DNA of 64,000 nt from Escherichia coli (GCF_041886205.1 NZ_CP169029.1); one strand, 5' to 3'; counted from the stretch's first letter, positions 2,281 to 38,969 are shown. Numbers and translations: made by a program. The notes: generated from the letters alone by a model not told the origin.

Positions 2281-2844
2281 TTATTTCGTTTGAATGCCAG
2301 TAACAGGAAATCGTTTATATAGGGTTGATAGCCCAACGTTATAGATACGTGCAACATAACGCCGTGATTTCCCTGCCGCTATGAGCGCTCCCATCTGTTG
2401 CCACTGCTCGTCGCTAAACTTCGGTCTACGCCCACCAATCCGGCCTTTGGATCTGGCAATAGCCAAACCAGCTAAAGTTCGCTCGCTATTCAAATCAGAT
2501 TCATACTGCGCAGCAGAAAGAATATTACGGAAATTATAGCGACCACTTGCTGTTTTCAGGTCTACACCATCTGTAATACTCCGAAAATTAACGCCTTTTT
2601 CGTGCAGATTTTGAAACATCAATAGCGCATGTAGCACATTTCTCCCTATCCGATCTAGCTTCCAGACAATCAACTCATCTCCACTTTTCATCACCGAAAT
2701 TAATTCCTTTAACACAGGGCGATTAGCTGTTCTGCCACTGGCATATTCTTCATAAATTCGCTCACAGCCAGCTGACTCAAGTGCAAGACGTTGCAACTCT
2801 GTATCCTGATGATTTGTTGATACACGAACATACCCGTAAATCAT
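2281..2844 (-). CDS. Serine-recombinase DNA invertase (Pin/Gin/Hin family)
   Basis: 187 aa; N-terminus MIYGYVRVSTNHQDTELQ with catalytic-Ser motif; C-terminal HTH; adjacent to inverted crossover sites. Confidence 0.9.
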   Translation of the reverse strand: MIYGYVRVSTNHQDTELQRLALESAGCERIYEEYASGRTANRPVLKELISVMKSGDELIVWKLDRIGRNVLHALLMFQNLHEKGVNFRSITDGVDLKTASGRYNFRNILSAAQYESDLNSERTLAGLAIARSKGRIGGRRPKFSDEQWQQMGALIAAGKSRRYVARIYNVGLSTLYKRFPVTGIQTK

Positions 2845-2903
2845 GAGTGCTTCTCCTGTTGTAAAAACAGGAGAAGAGGCGAAATATCACCTGATTCAGA
2901 AAA

Positions 2904-2929
2904 ATATTTGAAAGGTTGGTTTGGGAGAA
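2904..2929. other. Invertase crossover site A (gix/hix-like 12+2+12)
   Basis: atatttgaaagg-tt-ggtttgggagaa; inverted copy of the site at 4814-4839 (15 nt identical in reverse complement) with matching AA/TT core. Confidence 0.7.
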
Positions 2930-3415
2930 GGCTCAGCGTTACCCGTTGGTGTGCCTGTTCCGTGGCCTTCAGCCACACCACCAACAGGCTGGCTGAAATG
3001 CAACGGTGCACCTTTTTCTGCCGAAGAGTACCCAAAACTGGCAAAGGCTTACCCAAAGTTAAAATTACCGGATTTGCGCGGTGAGTTTATTCGCGGGTGG
3101 GATGATGGGCGAGGTGTTGATTCCGCGAGACTGCTGCTTTCAAGTCAGGCAGCATCTATCCTTGAACATAACCATGAAATGCATGGATGGACAGGGAACC
3201 CACTCATGGCTAGAGATGTTGGTGAATTAGGTACATCATCCGTATTTGCGGTGCAGTTGAGCATTGGCGATGGCGGGTTATTGTATTCGTGGAAGGATGG
3301 GAGTGGAACAACAAATGACAGTAAACGAATGGATAGAACAAATCATGTCAGTTCCGGCGCCGGTGATGGTAGCCCGCGAAACATTGCATTTAACTACATT
3401 GTGAGGGCTGCATAA
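2921..3415 (+). CDS. Alternative tail-fibre C-terminal variable segment (promoterless in current orientation; fused to constant part after inversion)
   Basis: ORF begins inside crossover site A; GLGEGSALPVGVPVPWPSATPPTGWLKCNGAPF tail-fibre C-terminal motifs. Confidence 0.65.
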   Translation: MGEGSALPVGVPVPWPSATPPTGWLKCNGAPFSAEEYPKLAKAYPKLKLPDLRGEFIRGWDDGRGVDSARLLLSSQAASILEHNHEMHGWTGNPLMARDVGELGTSSVFAVQLSIGDGGLLYSWKDGSGTTNDSKRMDRTNHVSSGAGDGSPRNIAFNYIVRAA

Positions 3416-4018
3416 ATGGAACAGGCTATTTTGGGAAAAGACGGTTACGCTTTAAATGATGGGGAAATCATCGTACATAACTATGATGGCGAAACGCGGG
3501 AATATATTTCTACATCAACTGAATATCTCGCTGTCGGAGTCGGTATCCCGGCATGTTCCTGTCTGGATGCACCAGGTACACATAAAGCTGGTTATGCAAT
3601 CTGTCGCTCTGTAGATTTAAATTCATGGGAATATGTGCCAGACCATCGCGGTGAAACGGTCTATAGCACCAAAACAGGAGAATCAAAAGAAATCACCGCT
3701 CCGGGTGATTACCCTGAAAATACAACCACTATCGCCCCATTAACGCCATACGATAAATGGGATGGTGAGAAATGGGTGACCGATACTGAGGCACAGCATA
3801 GCGCCGCAGTAGACGCGGCAGAAGCACAGCGCCAGTCACTGATTGATGCTGCAATGGCTTCCATTAGTCTGATTCAACTGAAATTGCAGGCCGGACGTAA
3901 ACTGACGCAGGCAGAAACAACCAGACTTAACGCTGTGCTGGATTACATTGACGCGGTGACGGCAACAGATACCAGCACCGCGCCGGATGTCATCTGGCCT
4001 GAACTGCCGGAGGCGTAG
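3416..4018 (+). CDS. Tail fibre assembly protein (alternative cassette, Tfa')
   Basis: 200 aa, starts 1 nt after the variable segment; C-terminal ...PDVIWPELPEA typical of Tfa family. Confidence 0.7.
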   Translation: MEQAILGKDGYALNDGEIIVHNYDGETREYISTSTEYLAVGVGIPACSCLDAPGTHKAGYAICRSVDLNSWEYVPDHRGETVYSTKTGESKEITAPGDYPENTTTIAPLTPYDKWDGEKWVTDTEAQHSAAVDAAEAQRQSLIDAAMASISLIQLKLQAGRKLTQAETTRLNAVLDYIDAVTATDTSTAPDVIWPELPEA

Positions 4019-30946: not shown

Positions 30947-31144
30947 TTATGCCGCAGCACTGTTAGTCTTTTGATATAAAGACACGTCAACTTTCAGTTT
31001 CCCGTTAGTAATTTTTTCTAACTGGTACGCTCGGCCTTCAGGAATAATCTCAGGCCACTCTGAAACAGACGGATGCTTAATACCTAGGGCTTCGGCGGTT
31101 TTACAAACTCCGCCGAAATAATTAATCACGTCGGATTTCCGCAT
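30947..31144 (-). CDS. Cro-like HTH regulator (YdaS-like)
   Basis: 65 aa; divergent from CI-like repressor across operator region. Confidence 0.65.
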   Translation of the reverse strand: MRKSDVINYFGGVCKTAEALGIKHPSVSEWPEIIPEGRAYQLEKITNGKLKVDVSLYQKTNSAAA

Positions 31145-31239: not shown

Positions 31240-31893
31240 ATGATGAACATGAGTGATCGTATTCGCCAAAGGCGAAAAGAACTGAACCTGACACAACAAG
31301 CACTGGCTGATTTGACTGGTGTGAACCGTGTCACGGTTACTGGATGGGAAAAGGACGACTACCAACCAAATGGAGCCAACCTTCAAGCCCTAGCCAACGC
31401 ACTTAAATGCGATCCTCTGTGGCTTGTTAGCGGAAAAGGCTCGCCTGAACCAAAGATAAATCTAAAACCTGAAATATTCGCAGTTAAAAAAGTCCCCCTA
31501 ATCTCGTGGGTTCAGGCGGGTTCATGGACAATGACGGAGCCTGGTGTCAGGAAAGAAGATGCTGAAGAGTGGGTTTATACTACCGCCCTTGTATCAGAAA
31601 TGGCATTTGCACTACGGGTCCGTGGTGATTCAATGACCAATCCCCTCGGCTCACCATCGATACCAGAAGGTTCTATCGTTATCGTAGAGCCAGATATTAT
31701 TGATACAGAGTGTATTAACGGAAAAATCGTTGTTGCCCATATCAATGGTGGGCAAGAAGCGACACTCAAAAAATTTGTTGAGGACTGGCCGAACAGGTAT
31801 CTCGTCCCACTAAATCCTAACTATAAAACTATTGAATGCGGTGAGAACTGCAGAATAGTTGGTCTTGTCAAACAAGTAATAATGGATTTTTGA
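31240..31893 (+). CDS. CI-like repressor (HTH + LexA-like S24 autopeptidase domain)
   Basis: 217 aa; N-terminal HTH (RRKELNLTQQALADLTGVNRVTVTGWE); C-terminal GDSM serine and downstream Lys typical of S24. Confidence 0.85.
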   Translation: MMNMSDRIRQRRKELNLTQQALADLTGVNRVTVTGWEKDDYQPNGANLQALANALKCDPLWLVSGKGSPEPKINLKPEIFAVKKVPLISWVQAGSWTMTEPGVRKEDAEEWVYTTALVSEMAFALRVRGDSMTNPLGSPSIPEGSIVIVEPDIIDTECINGKIVVAHINGGQEATLKKFVEDWPNRYLVPLNPNYKTIECGENCRIVGLVKQVIMDF

Positions 31894-31955
31894 CACATCT
31901 TCCTCACTATCGCAAAACCGGGGTATCCCCGGTTTTTTTATGAGCCTATCTTTTT

Positions 31956-32009
31956 ATGTAGGATAACCAACATAAACTCTTGACACTCACATGTTGGATA
32001 TCCTACATT
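31956..32009 (+). promoter_or_regulatory. OL-like region: two 18-bp operators (31956-31973, 31991-32008) bracketing PL (-35 TTGACA 31980-31985, -10 TACATT 32004-32009)
   Basis: atgtaggataaccaacat and atgttggatatcctacat; same promoter-operator arrangement as OR. Confidence 0.6.
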
Positions 32010-32352
32010 TGTTTTTAGAGTTGTGGTGAATGCGCAGGCTGATGCGCGAAAGACATTGCAGCTATTGCGGAAAAGAGCTGTTCGGCGGGGCAATTAAACG
32101 CCCGTGAGAGTCTGAAATAACCGCAAGCCGGAGATCAGCACCGGTCACCACAACAGCCACTGCTTTGGCGGTACCAGTTTGTACACTTGCTTCCGGCTGG
32201 TACCGCTCTTTTTACAAAACAGAGAAGAGCATCACCGGACGACGGGCTCATAACCCAATCCATCCGGGCGGCTGCCACCGCAGGTGTTCTTCTCTGTTTT
32301 GTGGAGAAACCAACCGACCTTACAGGGTCGATATGATGAGGAGCAGCAAAAT

Positions 32353-32713
32353 GGCTAGCGAACGCAGTACTGATGTGCAGGCATTTATCGGGGAGCTGGA
32401 CGGCGGCGTATTTGAAACCAAAATCGGCGCTGTTCTCAGTGAAGTCGCTTCCGGTGTGATGAACACGAAAACCAAAGGTAAGGTCTCGCTCAACCTGGAA
32501 ATCGAACCGTTTGATGAGAACCGTGTGAAAATCAAACACAAACTCTCATATGTTCGCCCGACTAACCGCGGGAAAATTTCCGAAGAAGACACCACCGAAA
32601 CGCCGATGTATGTCAATCGCGGTGGTCGCCTGACTATTCTGCAGGAAGACCAGGGACAATTACTGACTCTTGCCGGTGAACCTGACGGAAAACTCCGCGC
32701 AGCAGGTCATTAA
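32353..32713 (+). CDS. Hypothetical early protein (YfdP-like size; start uncertain)
   Basis: ORF-track ORF 32165-32713; shortened to internal Met to give ~120 aa. Confidence 0.35.
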
Positions 32714-32778
32714 TATCGTTCTTAATTAACTGATTATTTATCTCATCACTGAATATCTTTATATAGTGAGGACTTATT

Positions 32779-33603
32779 ATGTCTCAGAACTTAGACGCAA
32801 CCGCAATTAATCAAATCCATGCTCTTATTTCTGCTCAGGGTGTTAATGAAATTATCAGTAAGATTGGTGCCGATGCTGTGGCATTGCCTGAGAATTTCCG
32901 CATTCATGATCTGGAAAAATTTAATTTAAATCGCTTCCGTTTCCGTGGCGCGCTTTCCACTGCCAGCATCGATGATTTTACCCGTTATTCTAAAGATCTT
33001 GCAGATGAAGGCACCCGCTGCTTTATCGATGCTGATAATATGCGTGCCGTCAGTGTGCTTAACCTGGGTACTATTGATGAACCAGGTCACGCAGATAACA
33101 CCGCCACTCTCAAACTGAAAAAGACAGCACCGTTCTCTGCTCTGTTGTCTGTTAACGGCGAGCGTAACTCCCAGAAGTCACTGGCAGAATGGATTGAAGA
33201 CTGGGCCGACTACCTTGTAGGCTTTGATGCTAATGGTGACGCTATTCAGGCAACAAAAGCGGCTGCGGCTGTCCGTAAAATCACGATTGAAGCAAACCAG
33301 ACCGCTGATTTTGAAGATAATGACTTCAGCGGCAAACGCTCCCTGATGGAGTCTGTCGAAGCGAAGACCAAAGACATTATGCCAGTGGCATTTGAATTTA
33401 AATGCGTTCCGTTTGAAGGTCTGAAAGAACGTCCGTTTAAATTACGCCTCAGCATTATCACTGGCGATCGTCCTGTACTGGTTCTGCGCATTATTCAGCT
33501 GGAAGCGATGCAGGAAGAAATGGCTAACGAATTTCGTGATCTGCTTGTTGAGAAATTCAAAGACAGCAAAGTAGAAACCTTTATTGGTACTTTCACCGCC
33601 TGA
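32779..33603 (+). CDS. DUF2303-like early protein (YfdQ-like)
   Basis: 274 aa; size and position relative to HD-domain gene match CPS-53 yfdQ-yfdR arrangement as recalled. Confidence 0.45.
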
Positions 33604-33731
33604 TTTCATTACTGCAAATGCCCCTGCGGGGGCATTTATGGAAACGTAATTAACTCAATAATCACCGGATGGTGAGAGCTTCCTTTTAGCAGAATTCAGC
33701 GCGGTGCAGCGCATATAAAGTGGAGAACGAA

Positions 33732-34268
33732 ATGTCATTTATTAAAACTTTTTCCGGGAAGCATTTTTATTATGACAAGATAAATAAAGACGACATCGTG
33801 ATTAACGATATCGCAGTTTCCCTTTCAAATATCTGTCGCTTTGCAGGACATCTTTCACACTTCTACAGCGTCGCCCAGCATGCGGTGCTTTGCAGCCAGC
33901 TGGTACCGCAGGAATTTGCTTTTGAAGCGTTAATGCATGATGCAACAGAAGCATATTGCCAGGACATCCCCGCTCCACTGAAACGCCTTCTTCCTGACTA
34001 TAAACGGATGGAAGAAAAAATAGATGCCGTAATCCGTGAGAAATACGGGTTACCCCAGGTTATGAGCACGCCTGTGAAATATGCCGATCTCATCATGCTG
34101 GCAACCGAACGCCGCGATCTCGGGCTTGATGATGGCTCTTTCTGGCCTGTACTGGAAGGTATCCCGGCAACAGAGATGTTCAACGTGATTCCACTGGCTC
34201 CAGGCCATGCCTACGGGATGTTTATGGAACGCTTTAACGAATTATCGGAGTTACGCAAATGCGCATGA
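33732..34268 (+). CDS. HD-domain 5'-deoxynucleotidase-like protein (YfdR-like)
   Basis: HD motif (H...LMHDATEAY); ~178 aa from MSFIKT. Confidence 0.6.
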   Translation: MSFIKTFSGKHFYYDKINKDDIVINDIAVSLSNICRFAGHLSHFYSVAQHAVLCSQLVPQEFAFEALMHDATEAYCQDIPAPLKRLLPDYKRMEEKIDAVIREKYGLPQVMSTPVKYADLIMLATERRDLGLDDGSFWPVLEGIPATEMFNVIPLAPGHAYGMFMERFNELSELRKCA

Positions 34269-34771
34269 ATGTTTTCGAAATGGAAGGATTTCTTCGCGGG
34301 AAATGTGTACCGCGAGATCTGAAAGTGAATGAAACGGATGCTGAATATCTGGTGCGTAAATTTGCTGAAGCGGAGGCCAAGATTTCGGCTCTGTCCGAAG
34401 ACCAGCAGAGAGCGATTGAGTCAATTAAGCAGGCTGATGCAGCTGTAAAGTTGACACACGAGAAGTTTTCGGCGCTTGCGGCGGAGAATGAGCTGGCTCG
34501 TAAGGCAGTTCAGGCATTCTGCGATGTTGTTGGCGACAACACCGAGGTTATCGCTGAGGTGGTTGGGAGAGATGGCGTTCTGGTTATTTTGGAGGCCATG
34601 AAGGCAACAGGAAATATGCCTGCCACCGATGCTTTCCTGACTGAAGTCCGGGCGCATGGCGTGGAGATGGCTATGGAGCATATGCAGTCGAGCGGTTCGT
34701 TAACATTTGGAGATTGCTACATATCACTTAACGAGTTCGCCGCCCAGCTTCGCAAAGGAGGCGACCAGTGA
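34259..34771 (+). CDS. Hypothetical early protein
   Basis: 170-aa ORF overlapping neighbours by a few nt. Confidence 0.35.
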   Translation: MRMNVFEMEGFLRGKCVPRDLKVNETDAEYLVRKFAEAEAKISALSEDQQRAIESIKQADAAVKLTHEKFSALAAENELARKAVQAFCDVVGDNTEVIAEVVGRDGVLVILEAMKATGNMPATDAFLTEVRAHGVEMAMEHMQSSGSLTFGDCYISLNEFAAQLRKGGDQ

Positions 34772-35175
34772 GCAAGATTGACTATCAGGCACTGCGTGAG
34801 GCGGCAGAGAAAGCCGGTGAAGATAAGTGGCAGGCTAAAAAAATAAATGGTGATTTTTTCGTTATTCGTCACGGTAGTTATACAAGACAGCATGGCTACA
34901 CATCGTATCAACCCATTGCGGAGATTGATTGTAAGCCAGTCCGGGATTTTGTTGCCAAGGCTAATCCGGCTACCGTGCTGGAATTACTGGATGAACTGGA
35001 AGCAGCAAAAAAGCGCATAGCAGAACTGGAGGAGCGGGAAATACTGCTCCCGGAACGTAGCAGCATGCTTCATCGAACAGATTTTCACGATGATTACCAA
35101 ACGGTAATGGCATACAAAGTTTCTGAAGTCATCGATGCAATCCGCGCTACTGGCATTCGCATCAAAGGAGAGTGA
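34768..35175 (+). CDS. Hypothetical early protein
   Basis: 135-aa ORF, overlapping start. Confidence 0.35.
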   Translation: MSKIDYQALREAAEKAGEDKWQAKKINGDFFVIRHGSYTRQHGYTSYQPIAEIDCKPVRDFVAKANPATVLELLDELEAAKKRIAELEEREILLPERSSMLHRTDFHDDYQTVMAYKVSEVIDAIRATGIRIKGE

Positions 35176-35176
35176 T

Positions 35177-35440
35177 ATGGCAACTTTGACAAAAAAGGAA
35201 CAGGCATGGTTGAGCGAATTACAGAACGTTCTTGATCGCTGCCCGTCACCGAAAAAAATTGGTTTTTACACCATTGGCGATAAAAACATTTACCTGTATG
35301 ACCTACGCCGCATGGATGAAATCATGGAGGCTCTTGATAATCGTTCGTCAATGGATTGGTGTGTTGCTGTCCATGATATGAATGCCGGATTTGAAGAAAA
35401 GATTTTGTTCCCCTCGTCAGTTGAAAGCACAGCGGGTTAA
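35177..35440 (+). CDS. Hypothetical early protein (start at MATLTKK with GGAG RBS)
   Basis: ORF-track ORF 35135-35440 trimmed to Met with RBS. Confidence 0.3.
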   Translation: MATLTKKEQAWLSELQNVLDRCPSPKKIGFYTIGDKNIYLYDLRRMDEIMEALDNRSSMDWCVAVHDMNAGFEEKILFPSSVESTAG

Positions 35441-35450
35441 GGACTAACAC

Positions 35451-36467
35451 ATGACAACGTTCACCGACAAAGAACTGATTAAAGAAATCAAAGAGCGCAT
35501 AGGCAGCCTGGACGTTCGAGACAATATTGAGCGCCGGGCTTATGAAATAGCGTTAGCCTCGCTGGAAGCAGAACCGGTGGCCTGGCTGCATTCAGACAAC
35601 GGCTTAGGTATTCCGGCAATAACCCGGAGTAAAAACATTGCTGACAGTTGGTTATCGAATGGCTGGTATGTTCAGCCGCTATATATAGCCCAGCCAGTAC
35701 CGGTAATTCCTGATGAGGTGTTGTCCGCAATCCGGGAGGTTGCCAGGATTCGCGCCGATTTCGATGATTTTGACGGTGACAGGCGAGGTATCGGTGATTG
35801 TCTGGATGAGGCCGAGCAAGAGCTTATCGTTACCATTAACAAATATGCCAGTCAGTTGGCAGTAGAGCCGGTAGTGCCTGCTGTTCTGGAACGTTTGCGA
35901 ACCATTGTAGCGGACCCACGCGCATTACCTCGCAGAAAAGAATGGGTTAGTGGGCAGCAGTACAGTTACGTACTTCTCGAAAACGTAGAAGCTATGGTTG
36001 ATGAAGCCTGCCACGCTGCCATGCTTCAGGGTAGCCAACCTGTAAGCCAAACTTACAACTTGCCAGAATTAATCGAAGGCATGGAAGTTTCCATTGATGT
36101 AAGCACTTGTGATGCTGATTTAGGTAATCGCTATTTCGGCACCGTCACCGAGGCGTTAGAACTTGATACAGCCAAGAATGGTTACATCCTCCTGGTTCAG
36201 GACGCAGAGCCAAACTTCGATGTAAATGGCAACTCTCCGGGAACTCCGGATAGTTGGATAAGCTGTAGTGATCGAATGCCTGAAAAGGGCCAGAACGTGC
36301 TTATTTCGGTGAATTTCGATAGCTCTCTGGTTGAACCGCTAATATGCTCCGCACGCTATACCGGAAGCACCTTTCGGCGCGGAGATGCAACGATTAAGCC
36401 GGGTAATGGTATTGAGCAAGCAACTCACTGGATGCCGCTACCGGAACCGCCGCAGGAGGTGAAGTGA
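35451..36467 (+). CDS. Early protein with C-terminal DUF551-like domain
   Basis: 338 aa; C-terminal ...ATHWMPLPEPP motif. Confidence 0.35.
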   Translation: MTTFTDKELIKEIKERIGSLDVRDNIERRAYEIALASLEAEPVAWLHSDNGLGIPAITRSKNIADSWLSNGWYVQPLYIAQPVPVIPDEVLSAIREVARIRADFDDFDGDRRGIGDCLDEAEQELIVTINKYASQLAVEPVVPAVLERLRTIVADPRALPRRKEWVSGQQYSYVLLENVEAMVDEACHAAMLQGSQPVSQTYNLPELIEGMEVSIDVSTCDADLGNRYFGTVTEALELDTAKNGYILLVQDAEPNFDVNGNSPGTPDSWISCSDRMPEKGQNVLISVNFDSSLVEPLICSARYTGSTFRRGDATIKPGNGIEQATHWMPLPEPPQEVK

Positions 36468-37039
36468 TGAACAACTTAATGATCGACCTTGAGACGATGG
36501 GGAAAAATAAGGATGCACCGATCGTTTCCATTGGCGCGGTGTTCTTCACTCCAGAAACTGGAGACATCGGACAAGAATTCTATACGGTTGTTAGCCTGGA
36601 AAGTGCTATGGGGCAAGGAGCTACACCTGACGGCGATACCATCCTGTGGTGGTTGAAACAAAGCCCTGAAGCACGAGCTGCAATCTGTATTGATGATACT
36701 TTGTCGATCAGCGATGCTCTCTCAGAACTAAATCATTTCATTAACCGGCACGCAGCCAATACGAAATATTTAAAAGTCTGGGGTAACGGGGCCACCTTCG
36801 ACAACGTAATTTTACGTGGAGCTTATGAGCGAGCAGGACAAATCTGCCCGTGGGCATACTGGAATGACCACGATGTACGCACGATCGTTACGCTTGGGCG
36901 TTCCATCGGATTCGACCCCAAAATGGACATGCCTTTCGATGGCGAACGGCACAACGCCCTAGCCGATGCCCGTCATCAGGCAAAATATGTTTCCGCTATC
37001 TGGCAGAAATTAATTCCTGCCACCAGCACAGAATTATGA
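36464..37039 (+). CDS. DEDDh-type 3'-5' exonuclease
   Basis: 191 aa; MIDLETMG (D-x-E), internal acidic motifs and H-x4-D (HNALADARH). Confidence 0.65.
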   Translation: MMNNLMIDLETMGKNKDAPIVSIGAVFFTPETGDIGQEFYTVVSLESAMGQGATPDGDTILWWLKQSPEARAAICIDDTLSISDALSELNHFINRHAANTKYLKVWGNGATFDNVILRGAYERAGQICPWAYWNDHDVRTIVTLGRSIGFDPKMDMPFDGERHNALADARHQAKYVSAIWQKLIPATSTEL

Positions 37040-37075
37040 TTTTCCCGGGTGCAGCCGGTTTTGATGGAGAAAATT

Positions 37076-37348
37076 ATGAATACCTTGTTTTTACTGATGG
37101 CTGAATTCAATACCCCTAACATTGAACTCTCAGCAGTTAGCCAAAAGTACTTTGGCATGAGTCCAGCCACGGCAGAAGCAAAAGCAAACGCTTGTAAGTT
37201 GCCCGTTCCAACATATCGCATCGGCACATCACAAAAAGCAAAACGTTGCATCAATATTCAGGATCTTGCGGAATACATAGACAAAAGGCGAGAAGAAGGG
37301 CGTGCTGAGTGGGAAAGGGTCAGAACCCATAAACAAAGGCTCATTTAA
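37076..37348 (+). CDS. Small DNA-binding protein, excisionase/PrtN-like (uncertain)
   Basis: ~90 aa from MNTLFLL; FGMSPATAEAKANACKLPVPTYRIG resembles PrtN-type HTH as recalled; last gene before element terminus. Confidence 0.35.
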   Translation: MNTLFLLMAEFNTPNIELSAVSQKYFGMSPATAEAKANACKLPVPTYRIGTSQKAKRCINIQDLAEYIDKRREEGRAEWERVRTHKQRLI

Positions 37349-37356
37349 ATAGAATA

Positions 37357-37388
37357 TGAATAAACCCATCCAAAGATGGGTTTATTCA
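37357..37388. terminator. Bidirectional hairpin terminator between convergent genes
   Basis: tgaataaacccatc-caaa-gatgggtttattca, 14-bp perfect stem. Confidence 0.6.
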
Positions 37389-37852
37389 TAATGTTGAAGA
37401 GCAGCGAGTATCAGTTTTTTATGCCGTTTAACCATAGTTTTAGATATCTCAACTGCACATCGAACTTGTCTCATACAATGATCTGTAATGCGACCTTTTA
37501 GCACGTCACCATATTGGATGGCTATTTTCTCTTTAATAATTTCAAGATCGAAAGCAGCATGAGCCTCAATGCAATTAACAAATGAGTCCCATTTAAGAAA
37601 ATCATGGTCCTCTCTATTAATTTCGACCTGACAAGCCATAAGATCATTGTTTCTCTTAATAAATTCATTTATATCTGAATTTATTAGAAGAACTAAAAGA
37701 GGTTCACAGCAAACAACCACCATATATTTTACTTTAGGTGGGGTCGTAAAATCACAATGAAGATACAATACATCACCGGGTGATATACCTCTTTCACGAC
37801 TAAAATTAGCCTTAAAATCAGGAGGGAAACAATCACCCAGCATAAGTATCAA
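37382..37852 (-). CDS. Unknown 156-aa protein, downstream partner of Panacea-domain gene (candidate toxin/effector)
   Basis: 4-nt overlap with upstream gene; no recognisable family by eye; no predicted TM helix. Confidence 0.4.
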   Translation of the reverse strand: MILMLGDCFPPDFKANFSRERGISPGDVLYLHCDFTTPPKVKYMVVVCCEPLLVLLINSDINEFIKRNNDLMACQVEINREDHDFLKWDSFVNCIEAHAAFDLEIIKEKIAIQYGDVLKGRITDHCMRQVRCAVEISKTMVKRHKKLILAALQHYE

Positions 37853-38430
37853 TATCCGTTCTTCAGATAATCCAGTATTAATTTGCTATTTTTTAGCTGT
37901 GCAACTATCGATTCCAAAGACATCTCACCATTGTGATCTGCCTGTTCCCATGCCGCGTCATGGCTCATGGTTCTGATAGCTTCAAAGGACATGTTTCCAA
38001 GCATCGCGATAGACTTATCAATACACTCTAAATCTGAGTCACTAAAAAAGTCTTCATCAGCTTCACGGCTCGGCACAATCGTCATACCTGATACAGAAAA
38101 TGCTTTTCGCACAGAATCGACATCACAACCATTAGGAATGTAACGTCCATCTCCACGAGCAATTTTTATAATATCGTATGTGTTGCTTGCTACAGGCCCA
38201 TCCTTCATAGCGTTATAGTGATCGCCCGTTATGAGGCGTCCAAAACTTTCAAGGTGAAACCTGTCAGCATAATAAAGAATTTTTCCGACATGATAGATAT
38301 CTGGGATCGGTGCTTTAGAGGCGACGTACAGAATGGCCTCTAAAGCCTTTTCTGAATCAAACCTTACATTTAGCATCAATACACCCTTCATCCAAACAAC
38401 ATCGTCAAGCTCTGGCAAATGCAACCGCAT
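37849..38430 (-). CDS. Panacea/DUF4065 (SocA-like antitoxin) domain protein; true start may be internal Met
   Basis: Segment ALEAILYVASK...VGKILYYADRFHLESFGRLITGDHYNAMKDGPVASNTY fits the Panacea signature (LQKLLYYAQ...GPV) as recalled. Confidence 0.55.
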   Translation of the reverse strand: MRLHLPELDDVVWMKGVLMLNVRFDSEKALEAILYVASKAPIPDIYHVGKILYYADRFHLESFGRLITGDHYNAMKDGPVASNTYDIIKIARGDGRYIPNGCDVDSVRKAFSVSGMTIVPSREADEDFFSDSDLECIDKSIAMLGNMSFEAIRTMSHDAAWEQADHNGEMSLESIVAQLKNSKLILDYLKNGY

Positions 38431-38549: not shown

Positions 38550-38675
38550 TTTTCAAAAACGGTACATCCTATCGAGCATTGGTGCAACGCTAAACCGACC
38601 ACTCCAGTGAACGTCAGTTTTTTCAGGCATTGCGCTGGTTTGGTTGATTTTTTGCATTTCAGAATTACCGTGCAT
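38550..38675 (-). pseudogene. dusA: Displaced 5' end of dusA (first ~35 codons) at the prophage attachment junction
   Basis: Minus-strand translation MHGNSEMQKINQTSAMPEKTDVHWSGRFSVAPMLD matches recalled DusA N-terminus, then diverges (RMYRF-stop). Confidence 0.6.
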
Positions 38676-38969
38676 TTTCAAATGTAGAGATTATTTTATC
38701 GATATATCATGGGGTTATGTTATTCAGCATCACTGTTCAGGAGGCTCAATAGCGGGGTACTATACCATAACAACAGGAAGCGCCTGTCTCATTGCAAAAG
38801 AAAATTGAGATCCTCTCAAGGCATGAAGCTCTCACGAAGTGATGGAAATAATCTTATTAGCCGTTAACTTTGTTAAGGCCAATGATAAACAATCCAGGTT
38901 CGACGATAAATAAAAAATCACACATTAAACTCCGGTGATATCTCCCCCTGCTAATAGCATTGATAGAGA

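Follow-up and report, generated by a model that had tools for sequence, protein, structure and literature searches.

What does an Escherichia coli prophage gain from an early operon that encodes both an HD-domain phosphohydrolase and a DEDDh 3'-5' exonuclease? We addressed this question for an operon found at 32351-37348 of a 64,000-nucleotide stretch of E. coli DNA (GCF_041886205.1, NZ_CP169029.1; "the window" hereafter means this whole stretch), the content of which is a lambdoid prophage within the chromosome. The best explanation, which we consider probable, is that the operon is a standard early-left (PL) accessory one, carried by a mEp460/ST64B/LLS-type lambdoid prophage inserted in dusA, with YfdR acting in host takeover and with an exonuclease that resembles T4 DexA. 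The module is thus an already known one, namely a common early-left accessory operon of lambda-like E. coli prophages.

On the - strand, the structural, lysis and replication genes of the prophage extend as far as cro (30947-31144), and the control region that follows contains these elements:

31240-31893, + strand: gene for a CI-type repressor (helix-turn-helix and S24 peptidase; Pfam HTH_3 and Peptidase_S24, PHROG 4).
31914-31939, + strand: intrinsic terminator hairpin of the repressor gene plus a T-run, read directly from the sequence.
31956-31973 and 31991-32008: two 18-bp operator palindromes flanking or overlapping PL, found in the sequence.
31980-32009, + strand: PL promoter, TTGACA-18-TACATT (-35 at 31980-31985, -10 at 32004-32009), from a promoter scan with 10/12 matches.

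PL, a strong sigma-70 match, sits just 3' of the repressor terminator hairpin. That the operon is PL-driven is well supported by the sequence, because the PL hexamers are those of the divergent PR (31205-31176), because both promoters share operator palindromes (ATGTAGGATA(T/A)CCAACAT, three copies, the third of which overlaps PR) and because the PR and PL regions together make up a 40-nt inverted repeat. The nine + strand genes that lie 3' of PL are closely spaced, overlapping by 4-10 nt or separated by gaps of at most 128 nt, and their domain and family matches are far above chance level:

32351-32713, + strand: yfdP-family gene, 120 residues, 99.2% identity to K-12 YfdP; PHROG 204.
32779-33603, + strand: yfdQ, DUF2303, 274 residues; PF10065, E=7e-92.
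33732-34268, + strand: yfdR, HD-domain phosphohydrolase, 98.9% identity to K-12 YfdR; PHROG 318 "deoxyribonucleoside 5' monophosphate phosphatase", E=1e-110.
34259-34771, + strand: mosaic gene whose first 45 residues match YfdS, the remainder matching PHROG 614/492.
34768-35175, + strand: Ead/Ea22-like protein; PF13935, E=1.5e-18, PHROG 1667.
35177-35440, + strand: small protein; PHROG 1714.
35451-36467, + strand: mosaic protein, YfdT-like in its N-terminal 42 residues, with a C-terminal DUF551; PF04448, E=2e-21.
36467-37039, + strand: DEDDh 3'-5' exonuclease, 190 residues from the ATG, with an alternative GTG start at 36464; PF16473, E=4e-75.
37064-37348, + strand: final operon gene, for a PrtN-family excisionase; PF11112, E=4e-23, PHROG 1300 "excisionase".
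37353-37392, no strand assigned: 16-bp palindromic hairpin between the operon end and convergent toxin-antitoxin-like genes, terminator-like on the - strand.

No convincing + strand terminator was found within the operon, and the hairpin at 37353-37392 is its predicted close. A first-pass annotation of this DNA had proposed an early-left operon driven by PL, which the promoter and operators bear out, and every open reading frame (ORF) that it named is indeed on the + strand. Its domain calls (DUF2303, DUF551, DEDDh and HD) hold with the E-values listed above, while the start that it gave for the first ORF, 32353, has to be shifted by 2 nt, to 32351, to be in frame.

How common is this operon? 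Parts of the region are present in 4314 of the 5426 complete E. coli genomes (about 80%) as well as in 445 phage records, among which are mEp460, SfV, cdtI and numerous Stx phages, and YfdR, the best-known member, has been studied before, so that finding the module here adds little in itself. No single record carries at least 80% of the 5.3 kb colinearly (the best reaches 79%), because the middle of the operon is mosaic. In the CPS-53 (KplE1) prophage of K-12, yfdP-yfdQ-yfdR-yfdS-yfdT occur in the same order and with the same spacing, and YfdP, YfdQ and YfdR are 99.2%, 98.9% and 98.9% identical to those encoded here, whereas YfdS and YfdT match only the N-termini (42-45 residues) of the corresponding genes. 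The CPS-53 operon likewise terminates in an excisionase gene, but this is TorI there and PrtN-type here. CPS-53 is a decayed remnant at argW that lacks PL, has lost the structured leader, and has neither Ea22-type genes nor the exonuclease. The phages mEp460, ST64B, SfV and LLS (class A, PMC12315714) share the order repressor, PL, leader, yfdP, yfdQ, HD gene and mosaic middle, followed by the same tail of 3'-5' exonuclease, excisionase and dusA-type integration; they differ from the prophage studied here in their combination of middle genes and in the cargo past the excisionase, which is a SocA/Panacea-type pair here and consists of other genes in phages of that type.

We then counted the operon genes in a sample of 80 related IMG/VR prophages. 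Whereas yfdP (80/80), yfdQ (80/80) and yfdR (79/80) were nearly always present, the middle genes were almost never shared, and the exonuclease (21/80) and the PrtN excisionase (22/80) were found to co-occur. It follows from these presence counts that the operon consists of three modules: an invariant yfdP-yfdQ-yfdR head, a shuffled middle of Ea22/DUF551-type genes and an exonuclease-excisionase tail. This tail is tied to the dusA-type integration module. The prophage is inserted in dusA, because an ORF at 38553-38681 (- strand) starts with what we take to be the DusA N-terminus and because a related strain has a truncated tRNA-dihydrouridine synthase annotated at this place. Judging from the promoter-operator anatomy, inactivation of the CI-type repressor would let PL fire, and transcription would then cross a structured leader and read the nine genes.

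What could YfdR do once it is produced? [quoted passage not shown] Since this was shown, by overexpression, for K-12 proteins that are 99% identical, YfdR would most likely bind DnaA domain I here too and, jointly with YfdQ and a partner of the YfdS/T type, damp initiation at the host oriC. The first-pass annotation had offered host takeover as one plausible function of the early enzymes, a proposal that stands in part, through the YfdR-DnaA interaction.

The HD motif of YfdR (H..HD..D) is intact, its metal ligands (H50, H69, D70, D119) and catalytic residues (E73, D78) all being invariant in an alignment with the E. coli 5'-deoxynucleotidase YfbR and four phage homologues. The YfbR counterparts are H33, H68, D69 and D137 for metal binding, E72 as the catalytic Glu and D77 as the Asp that binds ribose. 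The two HD proteins share these metal ligands and the catalytic Glu and Asp, but they are only 23% identical, and YfbR is not known to bind DnaA as YfdR does. Because the score of the protein is just below the gathering cut-off of PF12917 (YfbR-like; 24.6 against 25.9 bits) and far below that of the YfbR equivalog model NCBIfam NF003009 (20 against 122 bits), it is best classified, on sequence, as a member of a separate YfdR/PHROG 318 lineage and not as a YfbR equivalog. The intact HD site would give YfdR a (d)NMP (nucleoside or deoxynucleoside monophosphate) phosphatase activity, which is presumably weak by analogy with the 98.9%-identical K-12 YfdR: as related by citing papers including PMC4776307, that protein is a phosphatase on cytidine monophosphate (CMP), with a nucleotide affinity much below that of YfbR (Zimmerman 2008). 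Another phage early enzyme, the T5 deoxynucleoside-5'-monophosphatase Dmp, nominally catalyses the same reaction (dNMP to deoxynucleoside; its record is annotated as degrading 5'-deoxyribonucleotides to deoxyribonucleosides). It was rejected as a YfdR homologue (best BLASTP E=3.3, PHROG 415 versus 318).

The exonuclease is a member of the PF16473 (Rv2179c-like) family, with a score of 251.9 bits where the cut-off is 27, and it is 100% identical to gp26 of phage mEp460. Its sole solved-structure match is the DEDDh-family exonuclease A of T4, DexA (PDB 8kel, E=4.6e-11; also 8ken), to which it is 32% identical. The catalytic pentad is intact, D7, E9, D112, H162 and D167 corresponding to D7, E9, D119, H186 and D191 of DexA, and W152 of DexA is kept as W132, while the equivalent of D169 is a serine (S146) in a part of the alignment with gaps nearby. 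The protein is shorter than DexA, lacking its extra loops, and its gene belongs to the repressed early operon of a temperate phage. Based on this homology and on the intact catalytic residues, we infer that it would most likely be a 3'-5' DNA exonuclease that depends on metal and, like T4 DexA, yields 5'-dNMPs, its task in lytic growth being the trimming of DNA ends or DNA scavenging.

Several points weigh against such roles for YfdR and the exonuclease. The DnaA effect was seen on overexpression only and its authors allow for an artefact, and deletion of yfdQRST was without phenotype (PMC4776307). The YfdS/T-type partners are mosaic here, so that it is only their first 42-45 residues that match. 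YfdP and YfdQ are fold orphans, confident AlphaFold models of both (YfdP: AlphaFold2 model with a predicted local distance difference test score of 83.7) yielding no informative structural relatives. As for the exonuclease, its proposed role in a lambdoid phage rests on homology, and we know of no lambdoid phage that degrades host DNA.

A different function is suggested by a relative of the exonuclease. The "bacterial" DexA homologue EcD ("HREX") degrades DNA containing 5-hydroxymethylcytosine (5hmC), and plasmid-borne EcD guards E. coli from T4 even at leaky expression (PMC12153337, 2025). If the exonuclease of the prophage behaved like EcD, it could selectively degrade the incoming 5hmC-DNA of T-even phages and thereby protect the lysogen. 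To compare the two proteins, a candidate EcD gene was recovered using the primer sequences of that paper and a scan of viral contigs: both primers match (the reverse one with one extra A) and the product starts with MIDTET and has an alanine at position 78, so that we regard this gene as EcD itself or as a variant nearly identical to it. EcD and the window exonuclease are members of one Pfam family and align collinearly (37% identity, E=4e-37); EcD is not among the best 120 homologues of the window protein. The retained catalytic residues would also be compatible with such an activity, as would W132, which corresponds to W152, one of the two DexA residues for recognition of 5hmC, the other being D169. 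However, EcD has replaced D90, the tetramer Asp of DexA, by Ala (A78), a loss that is said to make it safe for the host (PMC12153337), whereas the window exonuclease keeps both D90 and S87 of DexA, as D83 and S80, and has a serine at the D169 equivalent. The D83 position varies freely among close homologues of the window exonuclease, which also tells against a defence role.

The genetic setting argues against defence as well. The exonuclease gene is translationally coupled inside the repressed PL operon, no promoter of its own was found above chance, and its G+C content is that of the operon, unlike that of the AT-rich cargo genes next door. EcD itself (L030 8989-9570, from E. coli STEC2018-607; L013 6401-6970) was found in only 31 of the 5426 E. 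coli genomes and also in IMG/VR viral contigs. Its gene turned out to be an early-operon gene of a P2/186-like prophage, in the order integrase, repressor-like helix-turn-helix gene, ..., exonuclease, ParE-like gene, Dam gene and replication endonuclease. This location of EcD in a P2-like prophage is new here; the HREX paper (PMC12153337) makes no mention of prophages. "Bacterial" DexA homologues that were promoted as defence thus appear to be prophage early genes, which alters the reading of that claim, and we regard a defensive function of the window exonuclease as unlikely.

Could the two enzymes instead act against host defences? Counter-defence, with the early HD and/or DEDDh enzymes destroying nucleotides that serve as immune signals, or nucleic acids used in defence (cyclic oligonucleotides, for instance, or the multicopy single-stranded DNA, msDNA, of retrons), would suit both the early-operon location and the chemistry of both proteins. 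It is also in keeping with the co-occurrence of their genes in distant phages: in Pseudomonas phage pAN, an exonuclease gene (39% identity) adjoins an HD gene (40%), 1.4 kb 3' of yfdQ, an adjacency in a Pseudomonas phage that is new here, and Yersinia phage YeP3 has the HD, exonuclease and excisionase genes without yfdPQ. This linkage is a pointer for further work. When all the operon genes were searched with PADLOC, nothing was found but a weak hit (E=2e-5) on a DEDDh model that is Cas-associated, and no described anti-defence family, including those of the Acb1/Apyc1 type, was matched by Pfam, PHROGs or PADLOC, direct pairwise comparison with the latter type not having been made. HD and DEDDh were the sole enzyme families that Pfam and PHROGs gave. 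The neighbours of YfdR-type HD genes in virulent phages are replication genes (ligase, polymerase, helicase), which fits nucleotide or DNA metabolism, and YfdR already has another demonstrated partner, DnaA. There is no experiment in favour of counter-defence, and the only experimental precedent in E. coli for this exonuclease family points to defence instead. We therefore consider counter-defence, including the degradation of signalling nucleotides that had been suggested at first, to be improbable: nothing that we found supports it. Nor does the initial statement that none of these proteins is characterised hold, considering that YfdR has been studied for both DnaA binding and nucleotidase activity and that the exonuclease is of the DexA family, a relative of which, EcD, has been tested.

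If YfdR most probably serves host takeover and the exonuclease resembles DexA, how does this phage recombine? No annealase, Red/RecE-type exonuclease or anti-RecBCD protein (RecT, Erf, Exo, Gam, Abc) was found by Pfam and PHROGs among the nine operon genes, and the nin/replication region, as annotated in a 98%-identical prophage, has none of these families either. In contrast, Chi (GCTGGTGG) is the most frequent octamer of the prophage: across 13952-37020, 15 copies are in one orientation (- strand, which is the top strand of the lambda map) versus 1 in the other, where about 0.8 are expected. With nine of the 15 at 23.4-27.9 kb, the sites are densest beside the lysis/packaging end, as judged by eye and not by a Kolmogorov-Smirnov test and with the left end of the prophage outside the window; one lies inside the exonuclease gene, at 37020. 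A "no Rec module, Chi-rich" class of lambdoid phages has been described around phage LLS, with at least 8 Chi sites in the active and at most 6 in the inactive orientation and with clustering on the right (lysis/cos) side (PMC12315714). The prophage studied here resembles these LLS-type phages in lacking a recombination (Rec) module, in its Chi-rich genome with the same orientation bias (15 versus 1) and in the crowding of sites near the lysis end. From the missing Rec module, the Chi bias and the published LLS class, we infer that phage recombination would rely on the host RecBCD acting at correctly oriented Chi sites.

The absence of a Rec module might also mean that YfdP-YfdQ, perhaps with the exonuclease, form a cryptic recombination or end-processing system that stands in for Red/RecET. 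The contexts of distant DUF2303 genes bear on this point. They were obtained by tblastn against annotated phage genomes, an 86-sequence DUF2303 alignment being too diverse for pattern scanning, two representative proteins lying on contigs of about 1 kb, and two single-protein scans for distant DUF2303 contexts finding nothing. In 7 of 7 diverse phages (from Salmonella, an Stx phage, Pseudomonas, two from Vibrio, Xanthomonas and an uncultured one), yfdP was directly 5' of yfdQ, showing that the two genes are an obligate pair across distant phages, which is new here. The pair is often beside RecT/YqaJ/SSB-type genes, lying immediately next to RecT-YqaJ-SSB or recombinase-SSB genes in L115, VT2phi_272 and Vibrio 44E38.1, and a K-12 yfdQ deletion is sensitive to methyl methanesulfonate and to H2O2, according to work cited in PMC4776307. 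But the pair coexists with full Rec modules in VT2phi_272 and, per PMC12315714, in ArgO145, and because of this coexistence it is no substitute for such a module. Chi enrichment already accounts for recombination of the phage, the YfdP and YfdQ models are unlike any known annealase, nuclease or Gam/Ku fold, and 3'-5' exonucleases usually inhibit recombination (PMC12315714). The authors of the LLS study, who noted yfdP, yfdQ and the HD gene in the early-left operon, likewise argue against hidden recombinases (PMC12315714). We thus give little credence to a hidden recombination system. The processing of recombination intermediates, which the first-pass annotation had also offered, is conceivable for the early enzymes. 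YfdP and YfdQ nevertheless stand out as very widespread phage proteins that are always paired and yet lack a function or a structural relative.

One broader idea would bring these pieces together, although we see just a small chance that it is right: YfdP-YfdQ, the YfdR-type HD protein and the DexA-type exonuclease may be a functionally linked set for processing DNA ends or nucleotides. It would recur in temperate phages from Pseudomonas to enterobacteria, would serve those that use the RecBCD and Chi of the host in place of recombinases of their own, and would be gated by a conserved structured leader (a terminator-like hairpin and a 100-nt one) that replaces N/nut.

This leader lies between PL and yfdP and has the following parts:

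32010-32350, + strand: untranslated PL leader, highly structured (RNA fold z=-5.4).
32167-32206, + strand: leader hairpin 1, terminator-like, with a T-run.
About 32207-32309, + strand: leader hairpin 2, long (about 100 nt).
About 32314-32330, + strand: leader hairpin 3, small.

The same architecture of three elements is common to 5 diverged lambdoid phages (counterparts at L116 2868-3074, L127 1441-1655, L128 1501-1714 and L129 1474-1672). Hairpin 1 is GC-rich and keeps its pairing while its sequence varies between phages; 3' of it come C(T)5-6 and then a boxA-like CTTTTTACA(C)AA. The core of the hairpin of about 100 nt is nearly invariant among the five phages, and the small hairpin 3 is directly 5' of the yfdP ribosome-binding site. 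With RNAalifold, 8 of the 50 leader pairs were changed on both sides, and G-U pairs favour an RNA from the + strand. Neither an N-like gene in the 340-nt leader, nor a credible Rfam match to it, nor any annotation of such an element in 83 phage records was found. What is new here is a leader RNA between PL and yfdP that is structured, conserved and unannotated. It may act in cis as a terminator, antiterminator or processing element, and it represents a possible unrecognised cis-acting regulatory RNA in lambdoid phages that lack N. The HK022 PL/putL element was considered as its counterpart and rejected, there being no sequence similarity.

The first part of the leader also contains a 25-codon ORF (MRRLMRERHCSYCGKELFGGAIKRP; 32030-32107, + strand), whose translation is putative. 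The segment at about 32020-32155 is a separate mosaic unit: it has 98.5% identity in Salmonella phage IME207 (host Klebsiella pneumoniae) and in Escherichia phage JL22, and short sub-segments of it occur in several Klebsiella phages.

At the other end of the operon, an AT-rich (about 39% G+C) cassette of two genes (37382-38430, - strand) lies between the excisionase gene and the prophage end. The product of one gene (37849-38430) is an antitoxin-like protein with a SocA/Panacea domain (PF13274, E=5e-20), and this gene overlaps by 4 nt with that of a 156-residue protein for which no family match was found; the cassette looks like toxin-antitoxin or defence cargo. Different genes occupy this position in mEp460 and in strain fS25a, and in mEp460 the integrase gene follows the excisionase and cargo genes. 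Because no integrase was found among the window ORFs examined, the left end of the prophage is probably beyond position 1. Close to that side of the window, a Pin/Cin-type serine invertase gene (2281-2844, - strand) adjoins tail-collar and tail-fibre-assembly genes (2921-4018), which suggests an invertible tail-fibre (host-range) switch at 2281-4018. In the chromosomal flank, naRNA4 (CssrE) was detected at 55089-55159 on the - strand (63.6 bits), this being the sole Rfam match above gathering score in the window.

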